DNA from: Sedimentisphaerales bacterium
Lineage (GTDB): Bacteria > Planctomycetota > Phycisphaerae > Sedimentisphaerales > SM23-30
Direction: 5' to 3' (one strand)
Length of the DNA: 64,000 bases
Assembly: GCA_963666285.1 (NCBI GenBank)
Contig: OY762711.1
Shown here: piece by piece, positions 52,821 through 64,000 of the stretch
Layout: each line of letters begins with the position of its first letter
How positions within the stretch are numbered: the first letter of the stretch is position 1
Made by a program: the position numbers and the translations under genes
The notes under the pieces: model-generated
The model's input: only the letters and a program-made list of their open reading frames with translations
What the model was told of the DNA's origin: nothing
The model's database searches: none

Positions 52821-53255
52821 TTAACTGTTTAGCATATCTTTAAGAGAATACACCTTGCCATTTTTACCAGTAGATTTCGGTAAAACCTCCAAGCCATGGT
52901 CAAATACCTGTCTGCGCAGCAACAGGTACGAGTTTTCATCCAGCTCATTTACTGGACCTGAAACAACATTAGTTTCAAGGTTTGTCTTGTCAAATTCAGA
53001 ATCTGCATTATCCTGTACAACAAGCTTAATATTACCGAATGACATTTCTGGTACAGTCTGAGACCGGTTATTTGCCATATTCACAAAAGCTAGCACCATA
53101 ACCAAAAGTATCATACAGCCGTTGGAAACCTGCCAGATCCTGGTATTTTTGCGACCCTGCCTGAAGCCAGCTTCATAAGCCACCGCTGCGGGATCGAGCC
53201 CCGGTTCAACTGGAGCAAGGTTCATAAGTTTATTTTCAAATTCATTTATATTCAT
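52821..53255 (-). CDS. Probable membrane anti-sigma factor
   Basis: Directly downstream of ECF sigma; FE..L..L.P N-terminus, AYEAG, single TM. Confidence 0.6.
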   Translation of the reverse strand: MNINEFENKLMNLAPVEPGLDPAAVAYEAGFRQGRKNTRIWQVSNGCMILLVMVLAFVNMANNRSQTVPEMSFGNIKLVVQDNADSEFDKTNLETNVVSGPVNELDENSYLLLRRQVFDHGLEVLPKSTGKNGKVYSLKDMLNS

Positions 53256-53261
53256 GGCAAT

Positions 53262-53744
53262 TCACTCCAATCTATCTTTAAGAGCTTTAATAGCCCTGTT
53301 ATATCTATTGTGCAGGGTTGAGGTTGCTATGCCGGTTATTTCTGAAATTTGCTCAAAGCCCATCTGGCCCCAAAGCCTAAGGGTAACAACTTCGCGAAGT
53401 TCGGTATCAAGTTCAAATAAAGCTTTTTGGACTATTTCGGCGTCCAGCTGATTATCGGTATCCGGCTGAAACCATAATTTACCGTCAACTTTTAGCTTTT
53501 GGACCGCTTTATCTCTGACCTGCTTTTTTCGCAGACGACTGATACAATCGTTTCTAACCGTACGATACAGCCATGCCTTAATATTAACCGGCATATTTTT
53601 CTGGCTGATCAGCTTTACAAACGCTTCCTGAACAACATCTTCGGCATAATTTCCGAGCCATTGCCGGGCGTACAGACACAACCCGGCTGAATATTCGGTA
53701 AAATATTGCTGAATATGTGATGTCCTGGAGGGCAGTCTGTCCAT
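53262..53744 (-). CDS. ECF RNA polymerase sigma factor
   Basis: AEDVVQEAF, AWLYRTVRN (region 2); REVVTLRLW..MGFEQISE (region 4). Confidence 0.9.
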   Translation of the reverse strand: MDRLPSRTSHIQQYFTEYSAGLCLYARQWLGNYAEDVVQEAFVKLISQKNMPVNIKAWLYRTVRNDCISRLRKKQVRDKAVQKLKVDGKLWFQPDTDNQLDAEIVQKALFELDTELREVVTLRLWGQMGFEQISEITGIATSTLHNRYNRAIKALKDRLE

Positions 53745-53890
53745 AAAGTCTTTCTTGCTATAGCATTACGCAACAGGTACATTTTTATTATTATACCTGC
53801 TACATATATAAGACGCATGAAGAATGGTTTTTTCCAATAGAAAATGAGAAAAACAAAAATAATACTATTTAAAATTATGGTCAATAAATA

Positions 53891-55813
53891 TTATTTCAAA
53901 AATCTAGTATTACCCGAGCGGCGTGTGACACCGATTTTGTCCATATAATCAAGTATCGGCAAGGCATATTTGCGAGTTGTATCGAGCAGATATTTCATCT
54001 TAACGCTTTCGAGCCTACCCTGCCCTTCCCCGTTGACATGATCGATAATTCTGCGTTTGGCCTCTTCAATTGCTTCACTATGGAAATAAACCTTCCGTTC
54101 AACCTCAATAATTATTTTCTGCTCGGTGAGAATAGCAATGGTTTTATCATATTCACTTTGAGATGCATTAACCATGCTGCGGATGTCATCCGGATTTGGC
54201 GGAGAGAACAGGTTGTCTTTATAGACAGCTTCAACTTTATCCAGTAAAGCCTGCTGGGCCGGGTCATACTGTTCCTGGTGAGACGTCAGGGCAAACAGTT
54301 GATTTTTCAATAGCAGTTTACCTTCACTAATAGCAAGTTTTACAACTGCATCAAAAAGCGTTTTCTCCAGATCGCTCTGCTGCAGCAGAAGATCACGCTC
54401 CATGCCCAGTCGATCAGGCATTTGTTTGTGAAAGACCTCTAGTTTGCCATAAATATACTCAAGAACATCGTTATACACCTGAGCATGAAGATATTGTTCG
54501 TTAGCAACCTGGATAACAGTATTGCTTTCGACAAACCTGGCCAGAATATTCTTTACAGAATCGGGTTCCAGCTTGGTCCGCAATGCGATCTGCCTGATTG
54601 ACAAAACAGACCATGGATCATCTTTCAGGCAATATTCGATAAAAGACCTATTCTCGCATACTGCATTTGCCCAGCATTTTATTGCATCGATTGAAGATAT
54701 CCTGCTGCGTTTTAGTTTTTTCGGCAGTGGTTCTATGACAGTACCACCACCAACGGTCTGGACCGGACCGGTAGAACGCAAGATAAACCTGTCATTGGGA
54801 CCGGCAACTATTGGCTGATCAGCTAATAGCTGTACAAATACTTCCTGACCGGCAAGAGCGACAGTGTCTTCTAAAAGATATATCTTGGCGGTTACCTCAC
54901 TGGTACCTGTGTGAAACTTCATACGTTTGCCATGTTTGACAACAAGACCATCCAAATTAAGAATCTTTAGAGAACATAAAAACCACTCAGAAGGTTCAAA
55001 ATATTCACCTTTTGTAAGTACATTACCACGCTCGATATCGTTGAAATCCAGCTGCGGCAGGTTTAAGGCGGCACACTGGCCGGAACGGACAGTATCATCA
55101 TCACGACCATAGACCTGGATAGCCTTGATACGGCTTTTTGTGCCTTTTGGCAAAAGAGTAACCTCATCGCCAACTCTGGCAGAACCACTTACAGGGATGC
55201 CGCTAATAACATTACCAAAGCCTTTAACCGAGAAGAATTTTTCAACCGGCTGGCGAAATACGCCTTCTGTGCTTTTGGGCTCAATACTCTTTATCAGGGA
55301 TTTGAGAGAATCATAAAAGAAATCAAAGCCATCGCCCGTGATATTTGACATCGGGCAGATATCTGCACCCGCCAGAAAGGTATCTTTGAGATAATCTTTG
55401 AGTTCGGATATCACCTGCTCAACTCTTTCCGGAGAGACAATATCGGTTTTGGTAAGAGCTACCATGCCATGTTTGACACCAAGCAGGGTAAGAATATTGA
55501 GATGTTCCCGCGTCTGGGGCATTATACTATCATCAGCAGCAACAACAAAGATAACACCATCAATACCGGAAGCTCCGGCTACCATGGTCTTAATAAAATT
55601 TTCATGGCCGGGAACATCCACTATACCAACTTCAAGATCGCCTAGCCGACAAGGGGCAAAGCCAAGCTCTATGCTCATACCGCGTTCTTTTTCCTGCTTG
55701 AGCCGGTCGGTTTCGCAACCGGTAAGAAGCCTGATAAGTGCAGTTTTGCCGTGGTCAATATGACCGGCAGTACCTAGCGTTATATTTATTTGAGATGCCT
55801 GTTTATCGTTCAT
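53891..55813 (-). CDS. selB: Selenocysteine-specific elongation factor SelB
   Basis: GTAGHIDHGKT, EKERGMSIELGF, DVPGHENF, TKTD; C-terminal winged helices ending TTRKYALPILDYMD..GVTRR. Confidence 0.97.
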   Translation of the reverse strand: MNDKQASQINITLGTAGHIDHGKTALIRLLTGCETDRLKQEKERGMSIELGFAPCRLGDLEVGIVDVPGHENFIKTMVAGASGIDGVIFVVAADDSIMPQTREHLNILTLLGVKHGMVALTKTDIVSPERVEQVISELKDYLKDTFLAGADICPMSNITGDGFDFFYDSLKSLIKSIEPKSTEGVFRQPVEKFFSVKGFGNVISGIPVSGSARVGDEVTLLPKGTKSRIKAIQVYGRDDDTVRSGQCAALNLPQLDFNDIERGNVLTKGEYFEPSEWFLCSLKILNLDGLVVKHGKRMKFHTGTSEVTAKIYLLEDTVALAGQEVFVQLLADQPIVAGPNDRFILRSTGPVQTVGGGTVIEPLPKKLKRSRISSIDAIKCWANAVCENRSFIEYCLKDDPWSVLSIRQIALRTKLEPDSVKNILARFVESNTVIQVANEQYLHAQVYNDVLEYIYGKLEVFHKQMPDRLGMERDLLLQQSDLEKTLFDAVVKLAISEGKLLLKNQLFALTSHQEQYDPAQQALLDKVEAVYKDNLFSPPNPDDIRSMVNASQSEYDKTIAILTEQKIIIEVERKVYFHSEAIEEAKRRIIDHVNGEGQGRLESVKMKYLLDTTRKYALPILDYMDKIGVTRRSGNTRFLK

Positions 55814-55823
55814 TCTTATTGTT

Positions 55824-57224
55824 TTAACCCAAAATTTCAGTTAAAGCTTCAACTACTATCTTTGCATCCCCCTCCAGCAAAGACCTGGGATCCAGCAGTA
55901 TTTTATCTTCCTGGATACGGGTAAATATCGGAGTACTATAATGCCTGAGTCTGTTTGCAATTATAACACTACTAATCTTATTACTAAATATTGTCACTAA
56001 CCTGGTTTTGAGGTTCTGAGTCGGAAGAGAGCCGCTACCTGTTTGAGAAAATCCATCGACGCTCTCAATTTCAGCATCTAACTTTGCCTTACGCAGTTTT
56101 GATGCAATTTTTGCCGCTTCGCTTTTGATAGAATCGTACGACCGCAGCATCATCCGCAAGGTTGGAACCTGCTGTAGTGCCTTTTCTTCATTCATAAACA
56201 ACCTCAAAGTTGCTTCCAGGGCAGCAAGAGTCATTTTATCTACTCTAACTATGCGGGCAAACTGGTTCTTTTTGACCTTTTTAACCAGATCAGCCCTGCC
56301 GAGAATAATCCCGGCCTGGGAAGCACCGATAAGCTTGTCACCACTGGAACAGAGAATATCGGCACCATCGGCAATAGATTCGGCAAGAGTTGGCTCTTTG
56401 GCAAAACCATATTTTGAGAAATCAACCAGCGAACCTGCACCAACATCATCAAAAGCAATAAGGCCATTGGCATGAGCCAGATCAACAATCGGTTTAAGCG
56501 GTACTTCACTGCTGAATCCCTGGATTTTGTAATTGCTCGGATGAACTCGCAGAATAGCGGCGGTTTCTTCTGAAATAGCATTTTCATAATCACGCAAATG
56601 GGTTTTATTGGTAGTACCAACTTCGACCAGTTTTGCCCCGCTGAACGCCATTACATCCGGCAATCTGAAAGAACCGCCAATTTCGACAAGCTGACCGCGT
56701 GAAACTATAACCTCTTTGCCCTCGGCGATGGTATTTAATACCAGTGCAGTTGCTGCGGCATTGTTATTTACAATCGTAGCCGCTTCGGCACCGGTAAGAA
56801 TAGAAAACATCTTTTCTATATGGTTGTCGCGACTACTGCGTTTTCCATCTTCGATACCAAGCTGCAGCAGTGAATAGCCGCTGAGTTCGCTTTTTATCTG
56901 ATCTACAGCCGCGTCAGGCAATACCGCCCTGCCAAGCCCGGTATGAAGTACTATCCCGGCAGCATTAATAACCTTGCGATAGAAAGGACTTACCAGTGAA
57001 CCAAGTTCAGATTGAATATCGCCTACAACAGCATCTCTAATATCAAGCACATCCTTTGAGCAGCTGCCGGCTAATATCTCCTTGCGTTTTTCTTCAATAA
57101 CAGAACGACAAACCTTCGTTAATATTGCCTGAGAAAACGATTCCTTGTAAGAATCCGGCAATAGCTGACAGACAGAATCCACCGAAGGTATCTGCCTTAA
57201 CATTTCCTGCTGAGAAGCATCCAT
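55824..57224 (-). CDS. selA: L-seryl-tRNA(Sec) selenium transferase
   Basis: VINAAGIVLHTGLGRA, NNNAAA, SRGQLVEIGGSFR, EVGTTNKTH, VHPSNY, SGDKLIG (PLP Lys). Confidence 0.97.
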   Translation of the reverse strand: MDASQQEMLRQIPSVDSVCQLLPDSYKESFSQAILTKVCRSVIEEKRKEILAGSCSKDVLDIRDAVVGDIQSELGSLVSPFYRKVINAAGIVLHTGLGRAVLPDAAVDQIKSELSGYSLLQLGIEDGKRSSRDNHIEKMFSILTGAEAATIVNNNAAATALVLNTIAEGKEVIVSRGQLVEIGGSFRLPDVMAFSGAKLVEVGTTNKTHLRDYENAISEETAAILRVHPSNYKIQGFSSEVPLKPIVDLAHANGLIAFDDVGAGSLVDFSKYGFAKEPTLAESIADGADILCSSGDKLIGASQAGIILGRADLVKKVKKNQFARIVRVDKMTLAALEATLRLFMNEEKALQQVPTLRMMLRSYDSIKSEAAKIASKLRKAKLDAEIESVDGFSQTGSGSLPTQNLKTRLVTIFSNKISSVIIANRLRHYSTPIFTRIQEDKILLDPRSLLEGDAKIVVEALTEILG

Positions 57225-57248
57225 ATAAGTATCTTTCTAAAAAACGGG

Positions 57249-57785
57249 TTATTTGATTTCAACCCATTCTTCTTTCTTTTCAACTTTGAACGGGCCTAGA
57301 TCAGCATCTAAAACAACTTTTACTTTGCCGCTGAAATTATTAGGAGCTCGCCACGAACTCCGGCATGTGCCGCCTCAGCCAAAGGTAAAATCGCCAGAAC
57401 CGAGCAGTTTTTCCTGTTCATCATAAATCTTATATGATGGAGCATTCTGCATACTACCATTTCTTTCTGCTGCAGGTAAATAGGTTTCGCCGGCATTTCC
57501 CTCTAAAACAGCCCCCAGGTATAAAGTTCGACCGCTGACGGTAACATCTGCCCTGGCAACCAGCGGCTCACCAGGTTTTGAATCATTTTTCCAAGGGGAA
57601 GTTGATATTGAAAGCTCCCATATATTGCCCTGATCATCTTTTACAGATAGCCCAGAGTCTGAGATAACTTTAGCTGACGGATTCATAAACATAAAAAAGA
57701 GGAAAAGACCAATAATTACAAAACCAACAATAAAAATGCCTTTAGGCCCGGATTTATTCATTTCTTCAAAACTTTTTTCTGTCAT
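57249..57785 (-). CDS. Candidate membrane-anchored selenoprotein (178 aa, Sec137 in FG-U-GGTC)
   Basis: ATG 57785 after GGAGAG; TM GIFIVGFVIIGLFLFFMFM; TGA 57375-57377 followed by 41 open codons GGTCRSSWRAPNNFSGKVKVVLDADLGPFKVEKKEEWVEIK to TAA 57249-57251; SECIS-like hairpin; heads selAB. Confidence 0.85.
57343..57361 (-). promoter_or_regulatory. SECIS-like hairpin 1
   Basis: GGAGUUCG-UGG-CGAGCUCC, 8-bp stem starting 13 nt after the UGA. Confidence 0.8.
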
Positions 57786-58133
57786 AGAACTCTCCAGTGT
57801 TAATTTGACGCAAAACAATACTAAATATCAAAACGACAAGGCTATACTATAACTAATAAATGCACTAATTTGTATCAAAAACCTTGAAAAATGATTTCAT
57901 CTGTTATAAATCTGCTTATATTCTCATAAGAAAAGTAGTAATATAAATTTAATTAGTCAAACCACACAACCAAACTACCATAACATCCTATATTAACAAA
58001 GGTTACAGTTTAACAACCTTTTAAGTGCCTTTGTTTTATATACCGAAATATCTTGCAATTATTTTGGGATTATGGCATGATATATGAAGTTATTGTCTCG
58101 GCATATTAGAAATTGCTTTTTACAGGAAATTGA

Positions 58134-58271
58134 ATGAACAGCTATCAATATATACGATTAATGCACTCCGGAAAACAGGAGTATGGCTGAGTTGTTTCCT
58201 GTCGATACTCGTGTCGAGTGTCAGAAAGCAATTCTATCTTTAAATGTTTCATACAGCTTCATTTTATTTAA
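58134..58271 (+). CDS. Candidate Sec-containing leader peptide (45 aa, MNSYQYIRLMHSGKQEYG-U-VVSCRYSCRVSESNSIFKCFIQLHFI); not in ORF track
   Basis: AGGA upstream of ATG 58134 (alternative ATG 58161); TGA 58188-58190; TAA 58269-58271; motif homologous to the 57249-57785 protein; SECIS-like hairpin at the same spacing. Confidence 0.65.
58204..58222 (+). promoter_or_regulatory. SECIS-like hairpin 2
   Basis: GAUACUCG-UGU-CGAGUGUC, 8-bp stem starting 13 nt after UGA 58188-58190; same UCG-UGN-CGA apex as hairpin 1. Confidence 0.72.
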
Positions 58272-58325
58272 TAGAATCGTTAATGACACCAATAATATTG
58301 GTCAAAACCAAATAAAGAGCATATC

Positions 58326-58361
58326 GGCAGACTGGAATTTATCGTCTGCCTTTTCTATTTT
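58326..58361 (+). terminator. Terminator-like hairpin in the leader of the ABC-selD-selC operon
   Basis: GGCAGAC-11 nt-GTCTGCC followed by TTTTCTATTTT, ending about 30 nt before the binding-protein start. Confidence 0.55.
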
Positions 58362-58389
58362 AAATGGGAACATTGCCGAAAGGGAAAAT

Positions 58390-59520
58390 ATGAAAAATCT
58401 TCTACTTGCACTAATCGTTATAACAGCAGCGATAACCGGCTGCGAAAAAAAGGAAACCACATCCAGCGATAATACCACAAATCAAACACCATCAAAAGCA
58501 GTAACATTAAAAGTTGGGCATGTCGGCCACGACCACCACCTGGCATTGTATATGGCATGTGATTACGCTGATGAACTAAGTATAAATGGCGTCAGACTGG
58601 AGAAAGTTGAGGACATGAAATATTATACACTCTATAAAAACGAGACCAAACTTGCAGACGTGGAAATTGTAAAAGTTGGCGGCGGAGCCAAGATGCCTAC
58701 CGCACTGGCACAGGATGTCATAGATATTGGATTTGGCGGAGTTGCACCGGTTATTGCAGCAGTTGATAAAAACGCACCTGTAAAATTAATCAGCCCACTA
58801 CACTCCAAGGGTGATATGTTTGTGATGAAAACCGACTCCGAGGTAAACAATTGGGACGATTTTATTAAAATGGCAAAAGAAACCAAAACACCTATCAGAA
58901 TAGGATACAAAAGTCCATCAGCAGTCGCCAAGTTAATCTTTGAAGATGCTCTAAGTAATGCAGGGATCTCTTTTGGACAGGACCCTGCCCAGACCGATAT
59001 TAATGTGTTAATGGTTAATACCAAAGGCGGCGGCAAACTGAATGTTGCCCTGGAAAGCAATATTATTGATGGTTATGCAGGAAATAACCCATTCCCTGCT
59101 ATTGCCGTTAATAAGAAAATGGGAAAAGTAATTGCCGACCTGGAAGACCTTCCGCCTGGAAACTTCAAGAACCATCCATGCTGCTGCATTGCAGCTAACG
59201 ATAAGGCCCTGGCGGAAAAAACTGAAGCTATCGAGGCAATGCTGACACTATTCAAAAAGGCAACCGATTTAATCAACAACGACCTGAATAAATCAGTTGC
59301 AGCTGCGACGCACTGGATTGGTACATCTGAAGAAGTCGAAAAGATGAGTATTCCGACCAGCGGATACAGTATGCAGGTCACTGAGGATTGGCAGGCGACC
59401 ATGGATAAATGGTTCGAGGCTATGAAGGCTCTTGACACCTATCAAGGTGAACTAAAGGACATACCTGCTAAACAGGCCTGTGATAAAGTATACGATATGT
59501 CAATTTTGAAAAAGATATAA
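58390..59520 (+). CDS. ABC transporter substrate-binding lipoprotein (NitT/TauT family) with GHDHH and HPCCC motifs
   Basis: Lipobox AAITGC from ATG 58390 after AGGGA; LKVGHVGHDHHLAL; IDIGFGGVAP; HPCCCI. Confidence 0.88.
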   Translation: MKNLLLALIVITAAITGCEKKETTSSDNTTNQTPSKAVTLKVGHVGHDHHLALYMACDYADELSINGVRLEKVEDMKYYTLYKNETKLADVEIVKVGGGAKMPTALAQDVIDIGFGGVAPVIAAVDKNAPVKLISPLHSKGDMFVMKTDSEVNNWDDFIKMAKETKTPIRIGYKSPSAVAKLIFEDALSNAGISFGQDPAQTDINVLMVNTKGGGKLNVALESNIIDGYAGNNPFPAIAVNKKMGKVIADLEDLPPGNFKNHPCCCIAANDKALAEKTEAIEAMLTLFKKATDLINNDLNKSVAAATHWIGTSEEVEKMSIPTSGYSMQVTEDWQATMDKWFEAMKALDTYQGELKDIPAKQACDKVYDMSILKKI

Positions 59521-59533
59521 ACAGCTATAAATA

Positions 59534-60373
59534 ATGAACAATCCAAAGATAAGAAAATCAAATATCATCGGCTGGCTGATTATGCCAATAGTGCTGCTGG
59601 GAATATGGCAATTACTAGCGGTTAAACTTAACCAGCCATGGCTGATACCTGCACCGGTAAAGATAATAGAACAGTTGACCCACCCACTGCGAATTCATTT
59701 TTCGTCCGGGTCACTTTTTAGCAATACAATTATCAGCCTTCTGAGAGTATTTATCGGTTTTGCGCTAGCAGCTATTATCGGAGTTTCAGCAGGATTACTG
59801 CTGGGTTCGATCCGGCCGCTTAGACAATGGTTTGAACCAACAATAGAGATTATCAGGCCGTTATGCCCAATTGCCTGGCTGCCGTTTGCGATTGCGGTAT
59901 TCAAACTGAACACTCTGCCTAATCTTTTTGGTATCAGGTTTACTCATACCATACTGGACCAGGTACAGCTGGGTATGATATTTGTAATTTTTATCGGCGG
60001 ATTCTTTCCGATCTTCACTAACACTATGGATGGAGTAATAGGAGTGAGAAAGAATTTTGTCAGGCTGGCCCAGACACTTGGCGCAACCAGAGTCCAGGTA
60101 TTCCTGCAAATATATCTACCTTCTGCTATGCCTCAAATTCTTACCGGATTGCGACAGGGACTCGGCTTGTGCTGGTTTGTTATTATTGCAGCCGAAATGA
60201 TGGTTGGCTCTGATACAGGCATAGGCTATTTACTGATGTATGCCGCAGATAACTCGGCAATGGATATCGTGATATCATGCATGATTATCATAGGTGTGAT
60301 CGGCGCTGTAATGAGTACTGCTATGCGTATACTGATACACAAAAAGGTTGCATGGAAAGGAAAAGAGTTTTAA
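59534..60373 (+). CDS. ABC transporter permease (NitT/TauT, SsuC-like)
   Basis: SLLRVFIGF, RPLCPIAWLP, AQTLGA (EAA region), IAAEMM..GIGYL. Confidence 0.92.
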   Translation: MNNPKIRKSNIIGWLIMPIVLLGIWQLLAVKLNQPWLIPAPVKIIEQLTHPLRIHFSSGSLFSNTIISLLRVFIGFALAAIIGVSAGLLLGSIRPLRQWFEPTIEIIRPLCPIAWLPFAIAVFKLNTLPNLFGIRFTHTILDQVQLGMIFVIFIGGFFPIFTNTMDGVIGVRKNFVRLAQTLGATRVQVFLQIYLPSAMPQILTGLRQGLGLCWFVIIAAEMMVGSDTGIGYLLMYAADNSAMDIVISCMIIIGVIGAVMSTAMRILIHKKVAWKGKEF

Positions 60374-61149
60374 TGCAAACAGAACTACAACATCCTAATA
60401 CATGCACAAGTGTTATACCTCTAATCAGTTTTACAGGTATCAGTAAAGCATTCACCTCCGATTCCGGCCGAATAGTACAGGCTTTGACAGATGTATCATT
60501 TTCGGTGCGACCTGGTGAATTTATTACAATTGTTGGTGCAACCGGTTCCGGTAAAACCACTTTACTGAACCTGATAGCCCGTCTGGAACATTCAGATGCA
60601 GGAATAATAGAATACAACAACTCACTGGATATAAAAAATGAAATATCTTATGTATTCCAGCATTATACCCTGCTGCCCTGGTTAAACATTCAGAAAAACA
60701 TCTCTTTGGGACTGAAGCTGCGTAAAATACCTCAAAAACAACGAATTAAAACCGCATGCAGGTTAATGAAAGATACCGGGCTAAAAGGTTTTGAGCGGGC
60801 GTACCCACATGAGCTTTCCGGTGGAATGAGACAGCGTGCCGCAATTGCCCAGGCCCTGGCAACAGAACCAAAACTACTGCTTATGGACGAACCATTCGGG
60901 TCACTTGATGATGGCACACGAAGCGACTTACAGCAGATGTTAATAAATATCCACCAGCAAAGCAAAACTACTATTCTATTTGTTACTCATAACATTGACG
61001 AAGCAATATTGCTGGCTGACAGGATAATTGTTTTAAGCAAATCGCCTGGAAATATATTAGAAGATATTGAAATTAACCTGGCAAAACCAAGAAACAGAAA
61101 CAATAACGATTTTACTAAACTTTTTTTGCAGATACGGAATTTATTATGA
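60373..61149 (+). CDS. ABC transporter ATP-binding protein (NitT/TauT, SsuB-like)
   Basis: GATGSGKTT, VFQHYTLLPW, YPHELSGGMRQR, LLMDEPF, FVTHNIDEA; TAATG coupling to the permease. Confidence 0.95.
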   Translation: MQTELQHPNTCTSVIPLISFTGISKAFTSDSGRIVQALTDVSFSVRPGEFITIVGATGSGKTTLLNLIARLEHSDAGIIEYNNSLDIKNEISYVFQHYTLLPWLNIQKNISLGLKLRKIPQKQRIKTACRLMKDTGLKGFERAYPHELSGGMRQRAAIAQALATEPKLLLMDEPFGSLDDGTRSDLQQMLINIHQQSKTTILFVTHNIDEAILLADRIIVLSKSPGNILEDIEINLAKPRNRNNNDFTKLFLQIRNLL

Positions 61150-62777
61150 CAATTAATAAAGAAAGACGTAAACGCGTAATGCAGCGTTCTATCAAACTGG
61201 GACATTGTGTATGCGACCCTAAACAACCCTGTCCTTGTGAGATATTCAAGGAAAAAAACATATGCTTATGTGCAGGTGAGAGACTGGAGGAACCAACTGG
61301 AGAAGTTCGCTTAACCCAAATGGTGGAAAAGGCAGGATGCGGCTCCAAAATTGACCAGGCTTTCCTCAAGGAAGTGCTTGGCGATTTGAAAATGCCGGAA
61401 GACACTAACGTTCTAGTTGGCGTACCTGCCGGTGATGATGCCGGGGTATACGATATGGGCAATGGAACCTGCCTGGTTCAAACAGTTGATGTATTTACCC
61501 CAACTGTTGATGATCCATATATGTTCGGCCAGATTGCAGCAGCAAATTCTGTTAGTGATGTATATGCTATGGGCGGCATACCCAAAACCGCCCTTTCGAT
61601 AATCGGCTTTCCGGTACGCAAAGTCCCTGATAGAGTAATGAAAGAGATCATCCGAGGTGGAATTGATAAAATGGCAGAAGCCGGTGTGTCTATTATTGGC
61701 GGACATAGTATCAACGACCCGGAAATAAAAGCAGGCTATGCAGTAACTGGAACAATAGATAAAGAAAAAGTAATTACTAATGATGGCATAAAGGTTGACG
61801 ATGTATTCATCCTTACTAAAGCATTAGGGACAGGAATAATCTCATTTGCATCTCAAATAGGACGAGCGTCTAAAAGTGCAATGGAAGCTGCCGCAAAGTC
61901 AATGGCAACCCTGAATAAAACAGCATGCGAGTTAATGGTGAAATACAATGCCCATGCCGCCAGTGATGTTACCGGCTTTAGCTTGATAGGCCATTTATCA
62001 GAAATGACAAGACGTAGCGGGGTAGATGTCGAGATAACCTGGGATAAGCTGCCCTGGCTGCCGGAGGCACTTGATTATGCCGCTCAAGGAATATATCCCG
62101 GGGCAATCGAACGAAACAAGGAATCATGTGGTCATACCATTATTGTCGATGATAATGTGAGCGAAGCAATGGCTGATATCTGTTTTGACGCTCAGACTTC
62201 CGGCGGCATGCTAATTGCAGCAGCACCAGATAAAGCTGAAAAACTATTAGGTGAACTGAAAGCATCTGGACTGGAATATGCTGCCATCATTGGTAGGACC
62301 ATTTCAAGAGGCTCAGGAAAAATTAACATTGTAACGGACCGGACAAAATCATTTACAGCTTCTAATGCCGCTCAAAACATACAGGAAACTTCAGAACCTG
62401 ACCCGGAGCCATGTTGCGGGACAGGAGCAGCATCTGCAATAAAAGCACAAACAGCTAATGCAGAAAGCTGTTGTTGCGGTCCAGAACCGGATGGGCAAGA
62501 TAACAATAATGAACCAATCAAAGCTATCGAAACCAGTTTTTCCAGCTTTATGAGTAAGGTAAACAGACCCGGCGGACTTGACGCATTCACCAAGCAAGCG
62601 GTGAACCTGGCATTGTCTATCCATTCGAAATGTAAACCTTGTCTCAAAACACATATTGCAAAAGCACGTAAAATGGGCTATACTGAATCTGAGATTGACG
62701 AAGCAGCATGGATGGCAATCGCTTTTGGCGGTTCACCGGCCATGATGTTTTATAAAGAAGTGAAAGCAGAGGTATAA
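61146..62777 (+). CDS. selD: Selenide, water dikinase (Cys form) fused to an N-terminal CxC/CPC/CxC domain and a C-terminal AhpD/CMD domain
   Basis: RLTQ..AGCGSK (Cys65, TGC 61338-61340), DDAGV, TVDVF, NSVSDVYAMGG, GGHS, DVTGFSLIGH, DAQTSGGML; ATGA overlap with the ATPase gene. Confidence 0.95.
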   Translation: MTINKERRKRVMQRSIKLGHCVCDPKQPCPCEIFKEKNICLCAGERLEEPTGEVRLTQMVEKAGCGSKIDQAFLKEVLGDLKMPEDTNVLVGVPAGDDAGVYDMGNGTCLVQTVDVFTPTVDDPYMFGQIAAANSVSDVYAMGGIPKTALSIIGFPVRKVPDRVMKEIIRGGIDKMAEAGVSIIGGHSINDPEIKAGYAVTGTIDKEKVITNDGIKVDDVFILTKALGTGIISFASQIGRASKSAMEAAAKSMATLNKTACELMVKYNAHAASDVTGFSLIGHLSEMTRRSGVDVEITWDKLPWLPEALDYAAQGIYPGAIERNKESCGHTIIVDDNVSEAMADICFDAQTSGGMLIAAAPDKAEKLLGELKASGLEYAAIIGRTISRGSGKINIVTDRTKSFTASNAAQNIQETSEPDPEPCCGTGAASAIKAQTANAESCCCGPEPDGQDNNNEPIKAIETSFSSFMSKVNRPGGLDAFTKQAVNLALSIHSKCKPCLKTHIAKARKMGYTESEIDEAAWMAIAFGGSPAMMFYKEVKAEV

Positions 62778-62793
62778 CATCTCCTGCTTAGCT

Positions 62794-62890
62794 GGAGGTG
62801 ACAGGTAACTGGTGTTGCTCCTGGTCTTCAAAACCAGTGTGGGGCGGTAAGCCCGTCCCGGGTGGGTTCGATTCCCATTCGCCTCCGCCA
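62794..62890 (+). tRNA. selC: tRNA-Sec (anticodon UCA)
   Basis: 8-bp acceptor GGAGGTGA/TCGCCTCC + GCCA; 6-bp D stem with TGGT loop; CTGGT-CTTCAAA-ACCAG; long variable arm GGGGCGG/CCGTCCC; GTGGG-TTCGATT-CCCAT. Confidence 0.97.
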
Positions 62891-62914
62891 TTTTAGACTC
62901 TCCTACCTGAATAT

Positions 62915-62935
62915 TAGCACATTTAATAGCACATT
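62915..62935. repeat. Tandem 9-bp direct repeat (possible integrase arm-type sites)
   Basis: TAGCACATT at 62915-62923 and 62927-62935, between the tRNA 3' end and the integrase-like ORF. Confidence 0.45.
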
Positions 62936-63014
62936 ACTCTTTTATCCTACCTACCATTCTGATATAATATTTCTATCTGAATTTTAAATTATTCATCATT
63001 TATCAGGCTTAATA

Positions 63015-64000
63015 ATGGCTAAAAAAACTGGCAAAAAAGCAAACTATATCATCTTTGGAAACCAAGAAGTTAAAACTGTTTTCGATGGAAAAGAAATTGG
63101 AGTAAGCCTTGATAGAACCACTCAATCTCACTATACAATGCTTCCGCAAAAATCAGGAAGAACCAAACGAAAATGGTTAGGAAAGCATACAGGTAAAGCC
63201 GTTGCAAGTTTCTGGGCTTTAGTAGAAGAGCTCAATAACAAACAAACACCTACAACAACCATAATCGCTCAACAAGAAGACATATCCCCCCTGTATGAAC
63301 CAACGGATAAAATGTCTATGGATGAAGTTGTCAGGTCCAATCAAATTAAGTTAAGAAAGACTGGCAAAGTAATACTTACAACAAAGGAGTCAGAGCATAT
63401 ACAATGGCTATTCAAGGAACTCCAAAATCCCAAGGAATTGGCTCGTAAAACTGGCATCGAAGAGTTTACAGAGTTTGGAAAACTATTAGCCAAAGATACC
63501 AACATACCTCTTAAAGACCTTCTTAAAAACTATCTTAATAAAAAGAAAACCGTTTCAAAAACAACCAGACAACAAAGCAAAACATTTTTTAATAATTTCA
63601 TTAAAGCTATTGACTGCAAGTATGTCGATGAAATCACCCTGAAAGACATACACAACTATGAAGACTATATATACTCAAAAGGATTAGCCGCGAAAAGCAT
63701 CATTAACCAAATATGCACTATATCTACTATCATAAATTACAACACAGGAAGATATCACTGCCCTCATCTATTACAAGTGCATAGTTGGCTCCAGAAAGGA
63801 ATAGACAAACCTACGGAAGATAAACTTTACAATCCAAAATTGATTTCAGTTGTTGATTTTATGGCTTTATACGAAGTGGCTCCATTCAAATGGAAGCTGT
63901 TTCTATTACTTGGTCTGAATTGTGCAATGTATCCAATTGACATTTCCAACTTTCAACTAAAACACCTCAATATCGAAGATGGAACGGTTGCATTTAGACG
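63015..64000 (+). CDS. Tyrosine recombinase/integrase-like protein (partial, runs off window end; not in ORF track)
   Basis: Open from ATG 63015 to the end (328 codons); SAM-like core VDEITLKDIHNYEDYI..KGLAAKSIINQI; box-I-like FLLLGLNCAMYPIDISNF..LNIEDG; starts 124 nt after the tRNA. Confidence 0.75.
   Translation, partial: MAKKTGKKANYIIFGNQEVKTVFDGKEIGVSLDRTTQSHYTMLPQKSGRTKRKWLGKHTGKAVASFWALVEELNNKQTPTTTIIAQQEDISPLYEPTDKMSMDEVVRSNQIKLRKTGKVILTTKESEHIQWLFKELQNPKELARKTGIEEFTEFGKLLAKDTNIPLKDLLKNYLNKKKTVSKTTRQQSKTFFNNFIKAIDCKYVDEITLKDIHNYEDYIYSKGLAAKSIINQICTISTIINYNTGRYHCPHLLQVHSWLQKGIDKPTEDKLYNPKLISVVDFMALYEVAPFKWKLFLLLGLNCAMYPIDISNFQLKHLNIEDGTVAFR

Follow-up and report, generated by a model that had tools for sequence, protein, structure and literature searches.

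A predicted read-through gene ahead of selA

The window analysed here, a stretch of 64,000 nucleotides from the genome of a Sedimentisphaerales bacterium (G000), carries selA, selB, selD and a tRNA-Sec gene and, on its minus strand just ahead of selA, a small gene which, judging from the sequences compared below, is almost certainly a genuine selenoprotein gene. Under translation table 11 its open reading frame (ORF) ends at the TGA of positions 57377-57375, after ...GSGDFTFG. Read-through of this codon adds 41 further sense codons up to a TAA and gives a protein of 178 residues, with selenocysteine (Sec, U) at position 137 and a cysteine at position 141 in the order U-G-G-T-C. The ATG of selA, at 57224 on the same strand, lies 24 nt past the read-through stop. 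A preliminary description of the locus had drawn attention to the TGA-ended frame, its 41 open codons, the adjoining selA and the U-G-G-T-C motif, all of which were recovered on the minus strand. Insertion of Sec at UGA-137, aided by a downstream hairpin, is predicted from the sequence.

A six-frame search of 41 related whole genomes, with the read-through protein as query, returned matches in 13 of them, in 44 rows that each span exactly one TGA. The window protein is homologous over its full length to the read-through frames of 12 other genomes, and these frames share the motif (F/Y)G-U-(G/S/Q)-G-x-C-x-(Y/L/F/S)-S-W-R-x-P; motif, UGA and hairpin are kept in all 44 matches, and the loop that defines the family can be written (F/Y)G-U-G-G-x-C-x-x-SWR-x-P. 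Conservation past the UGA, which the preliminary description had named as a sign of read-through, is likewise seen in 44 of 44, and the C-terminal part shares the pattern G-x-F/Y-x-V-x-V...D-x-G-P-F. An alignment of 16 sequences shows no variation at P, G, U, G, S, W and R, and a cysteine stands at +4 from Sec in 22 of the 23 distinct sites from loci that were not selected by the motif. The U-x3-C spacing of U-G-G-T-C is conserved across the family and differs from the two-residue Sec-Cys spacing of the UxxC/CxxU redox selenoproteins with a thioredoxin fold.

Protein databases contain the family mainly in shortened form. A word-indexed search retrieved only the window protein itself in its truncated form (136 aa) together with two homologues, 130 and 135 aa long, that likewise end in ...FG, which bears out the expectation that database homologues would stop at the same (F/Y)G. 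A profile built from the 16-sequence alignment and scored against 1.84 billion representative proteins found 2062 proteins at E <= 0.001 and 312 at E <= 1e-10. Proteins from both searches, re-aligned to the profile, yielded 153 domain stretches, of which 49 run through the Sec position and 104 stop exactly before it, the latter having therefore been cut at TGA by gene callers.

That gene callers end the ORF at this codon in the window genome and in its two closest database homologues, and that TGA otherwise serves as a stop in this genome, would fit an ordinary stop codon, with a product of 136 residues followed by a frame that is either non-coding or a separate small gene. Such a reading is scarcely credible, however, because the frame is open across the TGA in 44 of 44 matches, the 41 residues downstream are conserved and make up four strands of the same predicted sandwich, homologues with a sense codon read through the site, the hairpin covaries, and the TGA forms track SelB. 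The genome as a whole follows the standard code, without genome-wide recoding, since tRNA-Sec is the only one of its 56 tRNAs that has the UCA anticodon and reads UGA, and since TGA closes 288 of the 1768 frames of at least 400 codons.

The SECIS hairpin and its covariation

The selenocysteine insertion sequence (SECIS) hairpin of the window, GGAGUUCG-UGG-CGAGCUCC, lies 16-34 nt downstream of the UGA, and its loop starts 21 nt after that codon. The preliminary description had placed a SECIS-like hairpin at exactly these coordinates, and covariation among homologues now backs it. The folding energy of the 41-nt stretch that starts at the UGA is -16.5 kcal/mol (z -2.03), a value equalled or bettered by 8 of 200 shuffles; the window hairpin alone is mildly unusual, and its significance comes from conservation in homologues. 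The bacterial SECIS (bSECIS) model, as set out in a 2026 review (PMC13188914, Fig. 2 legend), describes an apical loop of 3-9 nt with a G in its first two positions, a stem of 4-16 bp, a distance of 16-37 nt from the UGA and a minimum free energy (MFE) of at most -7.5 kcal/mol. The window hairpin, with its UGG loop, 8 bp, 21-nt spacing and -16.5 kcal/mol, falls within this model.

Across the family, the stem formed by +17 to +23 with +27 to +33 (counted from the U of UGA) is kept in 164 distinct sites, and the UGG codon for the conserved Trp makes up its loop. Covariation was counted in 101 of these sites, from loci L001-L104, a set that omits four second pattern matches in L010, L016, L034 and L084 (uninspected) as well as all sites of L105 and above. 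In the 7-bp core of these 101 sequences 97.0% of the cells are paired and 63 cells are changed on both sides, while none of 500 shuffles matches the pairing of the hairpin and slid controls are 19-58% paired. The most variable pairs (18-32, 19-31 and 20-30) were not imposed by retrieval, as they were free positions in the search pattern.

The same covariation can be read in the codons. Over the 164 sites the paired stem codons change together, being TAC/GTA (Tyr/Val) in 66, CTC/GAG (Leu/Glu) in 37, TAC/GTG in 26, CAC/GTG (His/Val) in 9, and TTC/GAA and TAT/ATA in 4 each, with AGT/GCT (Ser/Ala) in the window; the RNA stem therefore forces coupled amino-acid changes. Codon choice is constrained as well. 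Valine at +30 is encoded by GTA (64) or GTG (35) in 99 of 99 cases and never by GTC or GTT, as against 483 GTC/GTT among the 841 Val codons in the upstream 80 codons of the same genes, and for arginine at +27 CGA is used 136 times out of 152, versus 105 of 790 upstream. The loop is UGG at 130 and AUGGC at 24 of 163 sites, and the MFE is at most -7.5 kcal/mol in 140 of 163, in agreement with the bSECIS model.

Co-occurrence with the Sec trait and forms lacking Sec

Among the 41 relatives, SelB exceeds its cut-off in 10, all of which have the domain, and is found in none of the 28 genomes that lack the domain. The three remaining domain-bearing genomes are G019, where a partial selB lies at the end of a contig, and G022 and G023, each with a completeness of 78%. 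In a second sample of 301 genomes, drawn evenly from the phylum, the domain occurs in 35 genomes (84 rows, 70 with one TGA and 14 with none) and SelB in 214 of 301. SelB is present in 30 of the 31 genomes with a TGA form, the exception being G169, which is 83% complete and broken into 420 contigs. Four genomes (G112, G148, G262 and G278) have TGA-less forms only and no SelB at E <= 1e-66.

The sequences of two of these SelB-less genomes, G112 and G262, read FEYS-C(TGC)-GGVC, have no hairpin and carry (A/T)GK in place of SWR. Cysteine homologues at the U position had been suggested in advance as a check of the gene, and these forms supply the Sec/Cys pair to be expected of a true selenoprotein; cysteine also occupies the U position in 7 of the 49 site-spanning database domains. 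Since the hairpin-less forms have lost SWR, the conservation of this tripeptide elsewhere is partly owed to the RNA. The family is, moreover, a candidate for what maintains the Sec trait in the window genome, since no match to formate dehydrogenase alpha was found there at E <= 1e-10 and its six AhpC-TSA genes contain no TGA.

Predicted structure and export

An AlphaFold2 model of the 178-residue form, based on a 31-row alignment, has a mean pLDDT of 89.0 and a pTM of 0.74, with 95-98 over most of the domain. It consists of a helix (residues 15-33) and a beta-sandwich (39-177) of the immunoglobulin-like (Ig-like) type that spans the UGA. U137 lies in a two-residue turn between the short strands 135-136 and 139-140, and C141 follows just after. 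Four strands (143-177) lie past the UGA, with pLDDT above 95, and complete the sandwich, so that a 136-residue product would be an incomplete one. The model agrees with the single N-terminal transmembrane (TM) helix and the beta-rich extracytoplasmic domain that the preliminary description had proposed, as do the signal and lipoprotein leaders of paralogues. That description had also set U-x3-C apart from the thioredoxin-type UxxC, and the predicted fold is indeed a beta-sandwich and not a thioredoxin. A thioredoxin fold was considered and discarded, the model being all-beta and its best 50 structural matches being Ig/FN3/MG-type or other beta-sandwich domains.

The orthologues and paralogues carry a TM anchor or a lipoprotein signal, and basic residues precede the TM helix in homologues. 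Because of these anchors and of the lipoprotein or signal leaders on paralogues, the domain is likely to be exported and to face the periplasm. A model of a 462-residue member (pLDDT 90.8) is a chain of sandwiches, in which the confidence of the C-terminal Sec domain is lowest at the Sec loop (residues 411-420, pLDDT 66). Foldseek found no match in the PDB at E <= 0.001 for the small-form model; the 462-residue model gave 6 such matches, all to multi-Ig proteins with TM-scores of 0.12-0.19. In the wide VIA-align search the best Z was 7.0 with the small form and 8.4 with the 462-residue member, and the matches were all generic Ig/FN3/MG sandwiches.

Extent and architectures of the family

A pattern scan of one genome per species returned at least 136 stretches. 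The contig titles among the scan matches listed are of Sedimentisphaerales, Phycisphaerae, Pirellulales, Planctomycetaceae, Brocadiaceae and Verrucomicrobiota, and further of Kiritimatiellia, Hydrogenedentota, Sumerlaeota/BRC1 and Riflebacteria; the family is found mainly in Planctomycetota and Verrucomicrobiota. There are up to 9 matches per genome, and the window genome has seven paralogues, each with its UGA and hairpin.

The window gene represents the small architecture of one TM helix and the domain, and a tree of low resolution places it with the other small forms (SH-aLRT 92). Most members are forms of about 460 residues and larger. Those of about 460-500 residues begin with an anchor or a lipoprotein signal and end with the Sec domain, with several beta-sandwich domains in between; a multi-pass architecture has a signal and the Sec domain followed by a multi-pass membrane domain; and large lectin-domain proteins of 670-970 residues contain the domain along with F5/8 type C and Laminin_G_3 domains and are anchored at the C-terminus. 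In P0031 a Sec-less relative follows a Ser/Thr kinase. Pfam covers none of the Sec domains themselves. In a tree of 77 domains 5 of 73 branches are well supported, and the order of events cannot be derived from it.

Comparison with catalogued families

The preliminary description recognised no named family, and neither Pfam, NCBIfam nor Table 1 of the review supplied one. The sole Pfam/NCBIfam match of the window protein, to DUF5643, has an E-value of 0.055, below the cut-off, and was rejected; 16 family members gave 0 of 16 matches in either library. The family profile has no match at E <= 1 among PDB sequences, a search of the ESM Atlas with the natural Cys form P0014 returned unnamed Planctomycetota clusters only (best score 0.89), and all 10 of the database clusters looked up are unnamed or called 'hypothetical protein'. 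Table 1 of the review lists 119 prokaryotic selenoprotein families and subfamilies with motifs and model accessions, none with the motif or fold of this family (PMC13188914). The family is not mentioned in the matching passages of the deep-Sep (PMC12013277) and BSepDB papers. Nor did full-text literature searches yield a description of it, the families of Haft & Tolstoy 2025 having been compared via Table 1 of the review and NCBIfam only, or a paper that links selenocysteine to either Sedimentisphaerales or Kiritimatiellia. The Planctomycete candidates named 'hypothetical' and 'ASPIC/FG-GAP' in PMC4807772 (table S9) may or may not belong to this family. The family of exported Ig-like Sec-x3-Cys domains is thus in no catalogue searched.

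The nearest known systems are the exported thioredoxin-fold selenoproteins (DsbA-like, DsbG-like, thiol:disulfide interchange, UGC-containing TlpA-like and Prx-like; PMC13188914, Table 1), which are likewise bacterial and exported. As in the present family, a single Sec lies near a resolving Cys, the bSECIS is canonical and Cys homologues occur in organisms without the Sec trait; relatives of the family fused to a TlpA/AhpC-like domain provide a further connection. The family differs from them in its Ig-like sandwich, its U-x3-C in place of U-x2-C and its lack of a Pfam or NCBIfam model.

Two periplasmic sandwiches may also be compared with the family. nDsbD is an Ig-fold thiol-disulfide carrier of the periplasm, whose redox pair shuttles electrons between a membrane domain and thioredoxin-like partners. 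The family would resemble it as a periplasmic sandwich with a redox pair, to which one family architecture adds a multi-pass membrane domain, but it shows no sequence match, it uses Sec, and its membrane domain has no Pfam DsbD match. nDsbD is also absent from the best 50 structural rows, among which generic Ig-like folds score alike. SoxY is a periplasmic beta-sandwich sulfur carrier with a glycine-flanked reactive Cys on a C-terminal GGCGG arm, and it shares with the family the periplasmic sandwich and a reactive, glycine-flanked chalcogen residue, to which SoxY binds its substrate covalently. The Cys of SoxY is at the C-terminal tip, whereas the Sec of the family lies in an internal beta-turn, 41 residues from the C-terminus; with no Pfam match in addition, membership of the SoxY family was rejected. 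The only related structural row, a Foldseek match to the SoxZ protein TT0351, is not significant (E = 0.012).

The catalogued selenoproteins closest in motif are TsoA and 'hypothetical protein DG'. TsoA (NF045695, LULAxC) is the only family in Table 1 of the review whose motif also places a Cys at Sec+4. The flanks differ, being L-U-L-A-x-C in TsoA and G-U-G-G-x-C here, and NCBIfam matched TsoA neither to the window protein nor to any of the 16 members, so that this identity was discarded. NF049953 ribbon_DG_selen, the 'hypothetical protein DG' (GUxG), shares the G-U-x-G core and is likewise a computationally found selenoprotein of unassigned function (PMC12013277). Its best genome match reaches 17 bits against a cut-off of 130 and none of its 4 matches falls at a family locus, and identity with it was rejected as well.

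Neighbouring genes and the Sec machinery

The features of the locus are collected in Table 1. SelA, SelB and SelD exceed their NCBIfam cut-offs, and the tRNA-Sec is called by both ARAGORN and Rfam, in accordance with the Sec machinery that the preliminary description had placed at the locus; an Rfam scan of positions 53000-64000 passes tRNA-Sec alone.

Table 1. Features of the selenoprotein locus and of related loci (positions are those of the window unless a locus or contig is named)
Feature	Position	Strand	Basis
Full predicted selenoprotein gene, 178 residues (ATG 57785-57783; TAA 57251-57249)	57249..57785	-	Sequence reading and homology
Shine-Dalgarno-like GGAGAG, 4 nt ahead of ATG	57790..57795	-	Sequence reading
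Single N-terminal transmembrane helix, membrane anchor, codons 15-33	57687..57743	-	AlphaFold model
Ig-like beta-sandwich domain, codons 39-178	57252..57671	-	AlphaFold model
UGA, codon 137, predicted selenocysteine	57375..57377	-	TGA-aligned in 44/44 matches; TGC in two SelB-less genomes
UGC, Cys141, four residues past Sec (U-x-x-x-C)	57363..57365	-	Sequence reading
SECIS hairpin: 8-bp stem 57361-57354 with 57350-57343; loop UGG 57353-57351, the Trp145 codon	57343..57361	-	
selA	55824..57224	-	TIGR00474, 542.6 bits
selB	53891..55813	-	TIGR00475, 335.9 bits
ATP-binding cassette (ABC) importer, divergent: SsuA/SaoX-like binding protein, SaoP-like permease, SaoA-like ATPase	58183..61149	+	Best NCBIfam matches, all under curated cut-offs
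selD (Cys type) with fused C-terminal AhpD-like domain	61146..62777	+	TIGR00476, 365.6 bits; TIGR00778 at residues 476-526
tRNA-Sec, anticodon UCA	62794..62890	+	ARAGORN; Rfam, 76 bits
CPT-U protein, window genome, 7.6 kb beyond the window end	L161:7606-7866 = G000:C1:4455606-4455866	+	
CPT-U protein in three other genomes	L162:13382-13690; L164:13938-14186; L165:8423-8806 (-)		

The small form adjoins selA and/or selB in six genomes (G000, G010, G027, G033, G035 and G019), and in G000 and G035 it also stands beside the SsuA/SaoX-like importer and selD. The best NCBIfam matches of this importer, all under cut-off, are to SaoX, SaoP and SaoA of the selenium-associated ABC system, and the trio, which in the window separates the selenoprotein gene from selD, precedes selD in G035 too; it is a candidate for a transporter connected with selenium. 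SelD itself (61146-62777, +) is made of three parts, a Cys-rich N-terminal stretch, the Cys-type SelD core and the C-terminal AhpD-like domain, and similar long SelD genes occupy the same position in G010 and G035. The orientation of the small form relative to the sel genes differs between genomes. In G005 (L008), G040 (L009) and G029 (L011) the last 60-85 codons of the small form alone lie next to selA/selB, with UGA, motif and hairpin intact and with no N-terminal part in any frame; these short forms may each be a remnant or a shortened gene.

The position of the gene invites the reading that it is a selenium-sensing leader for selA-selB, in which passage of UGA-137, 147 nt upstream of the selA start, sets selA translation by coupling. 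The stop 24 nt before selA on the same strand, with no terminator-like site between them on the minus strand, would suit such a role, as would the three genomes that keep only the 60-85 C-terminal codons by the sel genes with UGA and hairpin intact; a scan for promoters and terminators gave counts at the level of shuffles. This role is nevertheless very improbable. The gene or fragment lies on the strand opposite selA/selB in G010, G035, G005, G029 and G040, so that coupling is not the conserved role, and the leader reading is further opposed by the conservation of the whole domain at the protein level and by the 6 other paralogues of the window genome that lie far from sel genes.

About 14 kb from the window gene the same island encodes a NapH/MauN-like ferredoxin membrane protein, just after a small anchored protein that ends CPT-U-G-S-stop, and beyond it lie one multi-pass and one large form of the family. 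The small protein has one N-terminal TM helix and ends ...CPT-U-(G/V)-(S/K)-stop in 4 of 4 genomes examined. Its gene has a hairpin, CAUGG-UGU-CCAUG, some 17-20 nt past the UGA and overlapping the start of the NapH/MauN-like gene, and NCBIfam gave no match for it; it would seem to be another selenoprotein absent from the lists, in the 'UXX-stop' style. In G035 and G010 the CPT-U gene directly follows selD. In the window genome about 8.8 kb (63015-63998, +, and L161:1-7600) separate tRNA-Sec from the part of the island with the CPT-U and NapH-like genes; this stretch holds an ORF right after tRNA-Sec and a gene that is presumably related to serine recombinases, given the start of its product, and may be a mobile-element insertion at tRNA-Sec.

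Other genes were seen beside the Sec machinery of related genomes. A prepilin-type protein (GFTLIE N-terminus, 305-330 aa) adjoins selA in G035 (L164:5392-6309, -) and G033 (L165:16873-17865, +) and ends ...PVPG-TGA-stop or ...PVPG-TGA-G-stop with a hairpin past the TGA, so that it may carry a C-terminal Sec. Double-cubane-cluster reductase-like genes stand beside selD in G010 (L162:8538-10834) and G033 (L165:10046-14289) and were not seen in the window; a nearby ORF in G033 is presumably their activase, to judge from its N-terminal sequence alone.

Proposed function and mechanism

The explanation favoured here comprises a Sec-read gene, a membrane-anchored Ig-like domain and an extracytoplasmic Sec-x3-Cys redox centre, and taken as a whole it is judged somewhat more likely than not; for the extracytoplasmic redox role as such, the odds are about even. 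The reason for favouring that role is the fusion of some Cys forms to TlpA/AhpC-like redoxins: in P0055, P0058, P0132 and P0051, four representatives of the Cys form, the domain is joined to AhpC-TSA/Redoxin domains with CxxC, which hints at a thiol-disulfide relay. The Sec and the Cys, with three residues between them and lying across a turn in the model, point to a selenenylsulfide couple, and the island includes further genes that lean towards redox chemistry, namely those of the NapH/MauN-like ferredoxin protein, the anchored CPT-U protein and the SelD-AhpD fusion.

In the mechanism proposed, Sec137 and Cys141 would flank a tight beta-turn and form a reversible selenenylsulfide, at a Sec-Cys distance taken from topology. 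The selenolate would attack an extracytoplasmic substrate, which may be a disulfide, a peroxide or a chalcogen species, and the Se-S bond would then be re-reduced by a membrane or periplasmic relay. This relay could be a TlpA/AhpC-like redoxin or the NapH-like ferredoxin module of the same island.

Several observations weigh against a redox centre of this kind. Only 4 representatives show the redoxin fusion, 14 kb separate the NapH-like gene from the window gene, and the nearness to sel genes might come from a Sec island inherited as a whole and not from a shared function. The matches of the predicted fold are generic and offer no functional lead, and one paralogue in the window genome has Ser instead of the +4 Cys. 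In the 49 spanning domains the U site is also G (8), S (6), L (5), R (4), A (3), Q (3) and others, and Gly occurs there in at least one NCBI protein translated under table 11; codons for G, C, S, L, R and W are each one base change away from TGA. As the site is often neither Sec nor Cys, many members must either function with no redox-active residue there or be decaying. The 77-domain tree, furthermore, mixes Sec and non-Sec forms within each architecture group, which argues against a strictly catalytic Sec.

Some of the same evidence can be read in another way, by which the protein is a real selenoprotein and its Sec-x3-Cys loop is a binding or carrier site outside the cell for a chalcogen (selenide, selenite-derived Se or polysulfide) or for a soft metal (Cu(I), Hg(II)). 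Selenium might, for example, be handed to the adjacent ABC importer and SelD, or the loop might act as a SoxY-type carrier arm. The glycine flanks (G-U-G-G), which leave the Sec exposed, and the low confidence of the U loop in the Sec domain of the 462-residue model (pLDDT 66, its least confident part) would suit a carrier, as would the adjacency of the small form to selA/selB in six genomes, with the importer and selD as well in G000 and G035. The +4 Cys is often kept after Sec loss (28 of 49), as expected of a single-thiol ligand or carrier. A gap in prokaryotic selenium uptake also fits, no specific high-affinity uptake system being known according to the review (PMC13188914, section 4). 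A carrier role is nonetheless rather unlikely. The 16-sequence alignment shows no conserved His, Met or Asp ligands around the loop, Pfam finds no SoxY, CopC or heavy-metal domain, and most family members are not beside transporters. The varying orientation relative to the sel genes means that co-transcription is not conserved.

The redox reading may tentatively be extended to an undescribed extracytoplasmic selenoprotein system of Planctomycetota, Verrucomicrobiota and neighbouring phyla, a proposal that, with all its parts taken together, appears rather doubtful. Its core would be the Ig-like Sec-x3-Cys family, which numbers thousands of members and reaches 9 matches in a single genome. The Sec machinery, the Sao-like ABC importer, SelD-AhpD, the NapH-like ferredoxin protein and the CPT-U protein would form one island, and this island, not formate dehydrogenase, would keep Sec in anaerobic Phycisphaerae, by way of a selenol redox or chalcogen relay on the outer face of the membrane.

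Implications

Bacterial selenoproteins are mostly cytoplasmic or thioredoxin-fold enzymes. The present family has been systematically mis-annotated as truncated hypothetical proteins. Its domain was found in every SelB-positive genome of a sample from one order of Planctomycetota. A simple rule, YG-TGA-GGN-GGN-NNN-TGY followed by a UCG-UGG-CGA hairpin, would allow thousands of gene models to be repaired. The hairpin also provides an unusually clean natural case in which RNA structure dictates coupled residue changes (Tyr/Val, Leu/Glu, His/Val, Ser/Ala). The family points to an unexplored periplasmic selenium chemistry in abundant bacteria of sediments and wastewater, and it may have a bearing on how prokaryotes acquire selenium.

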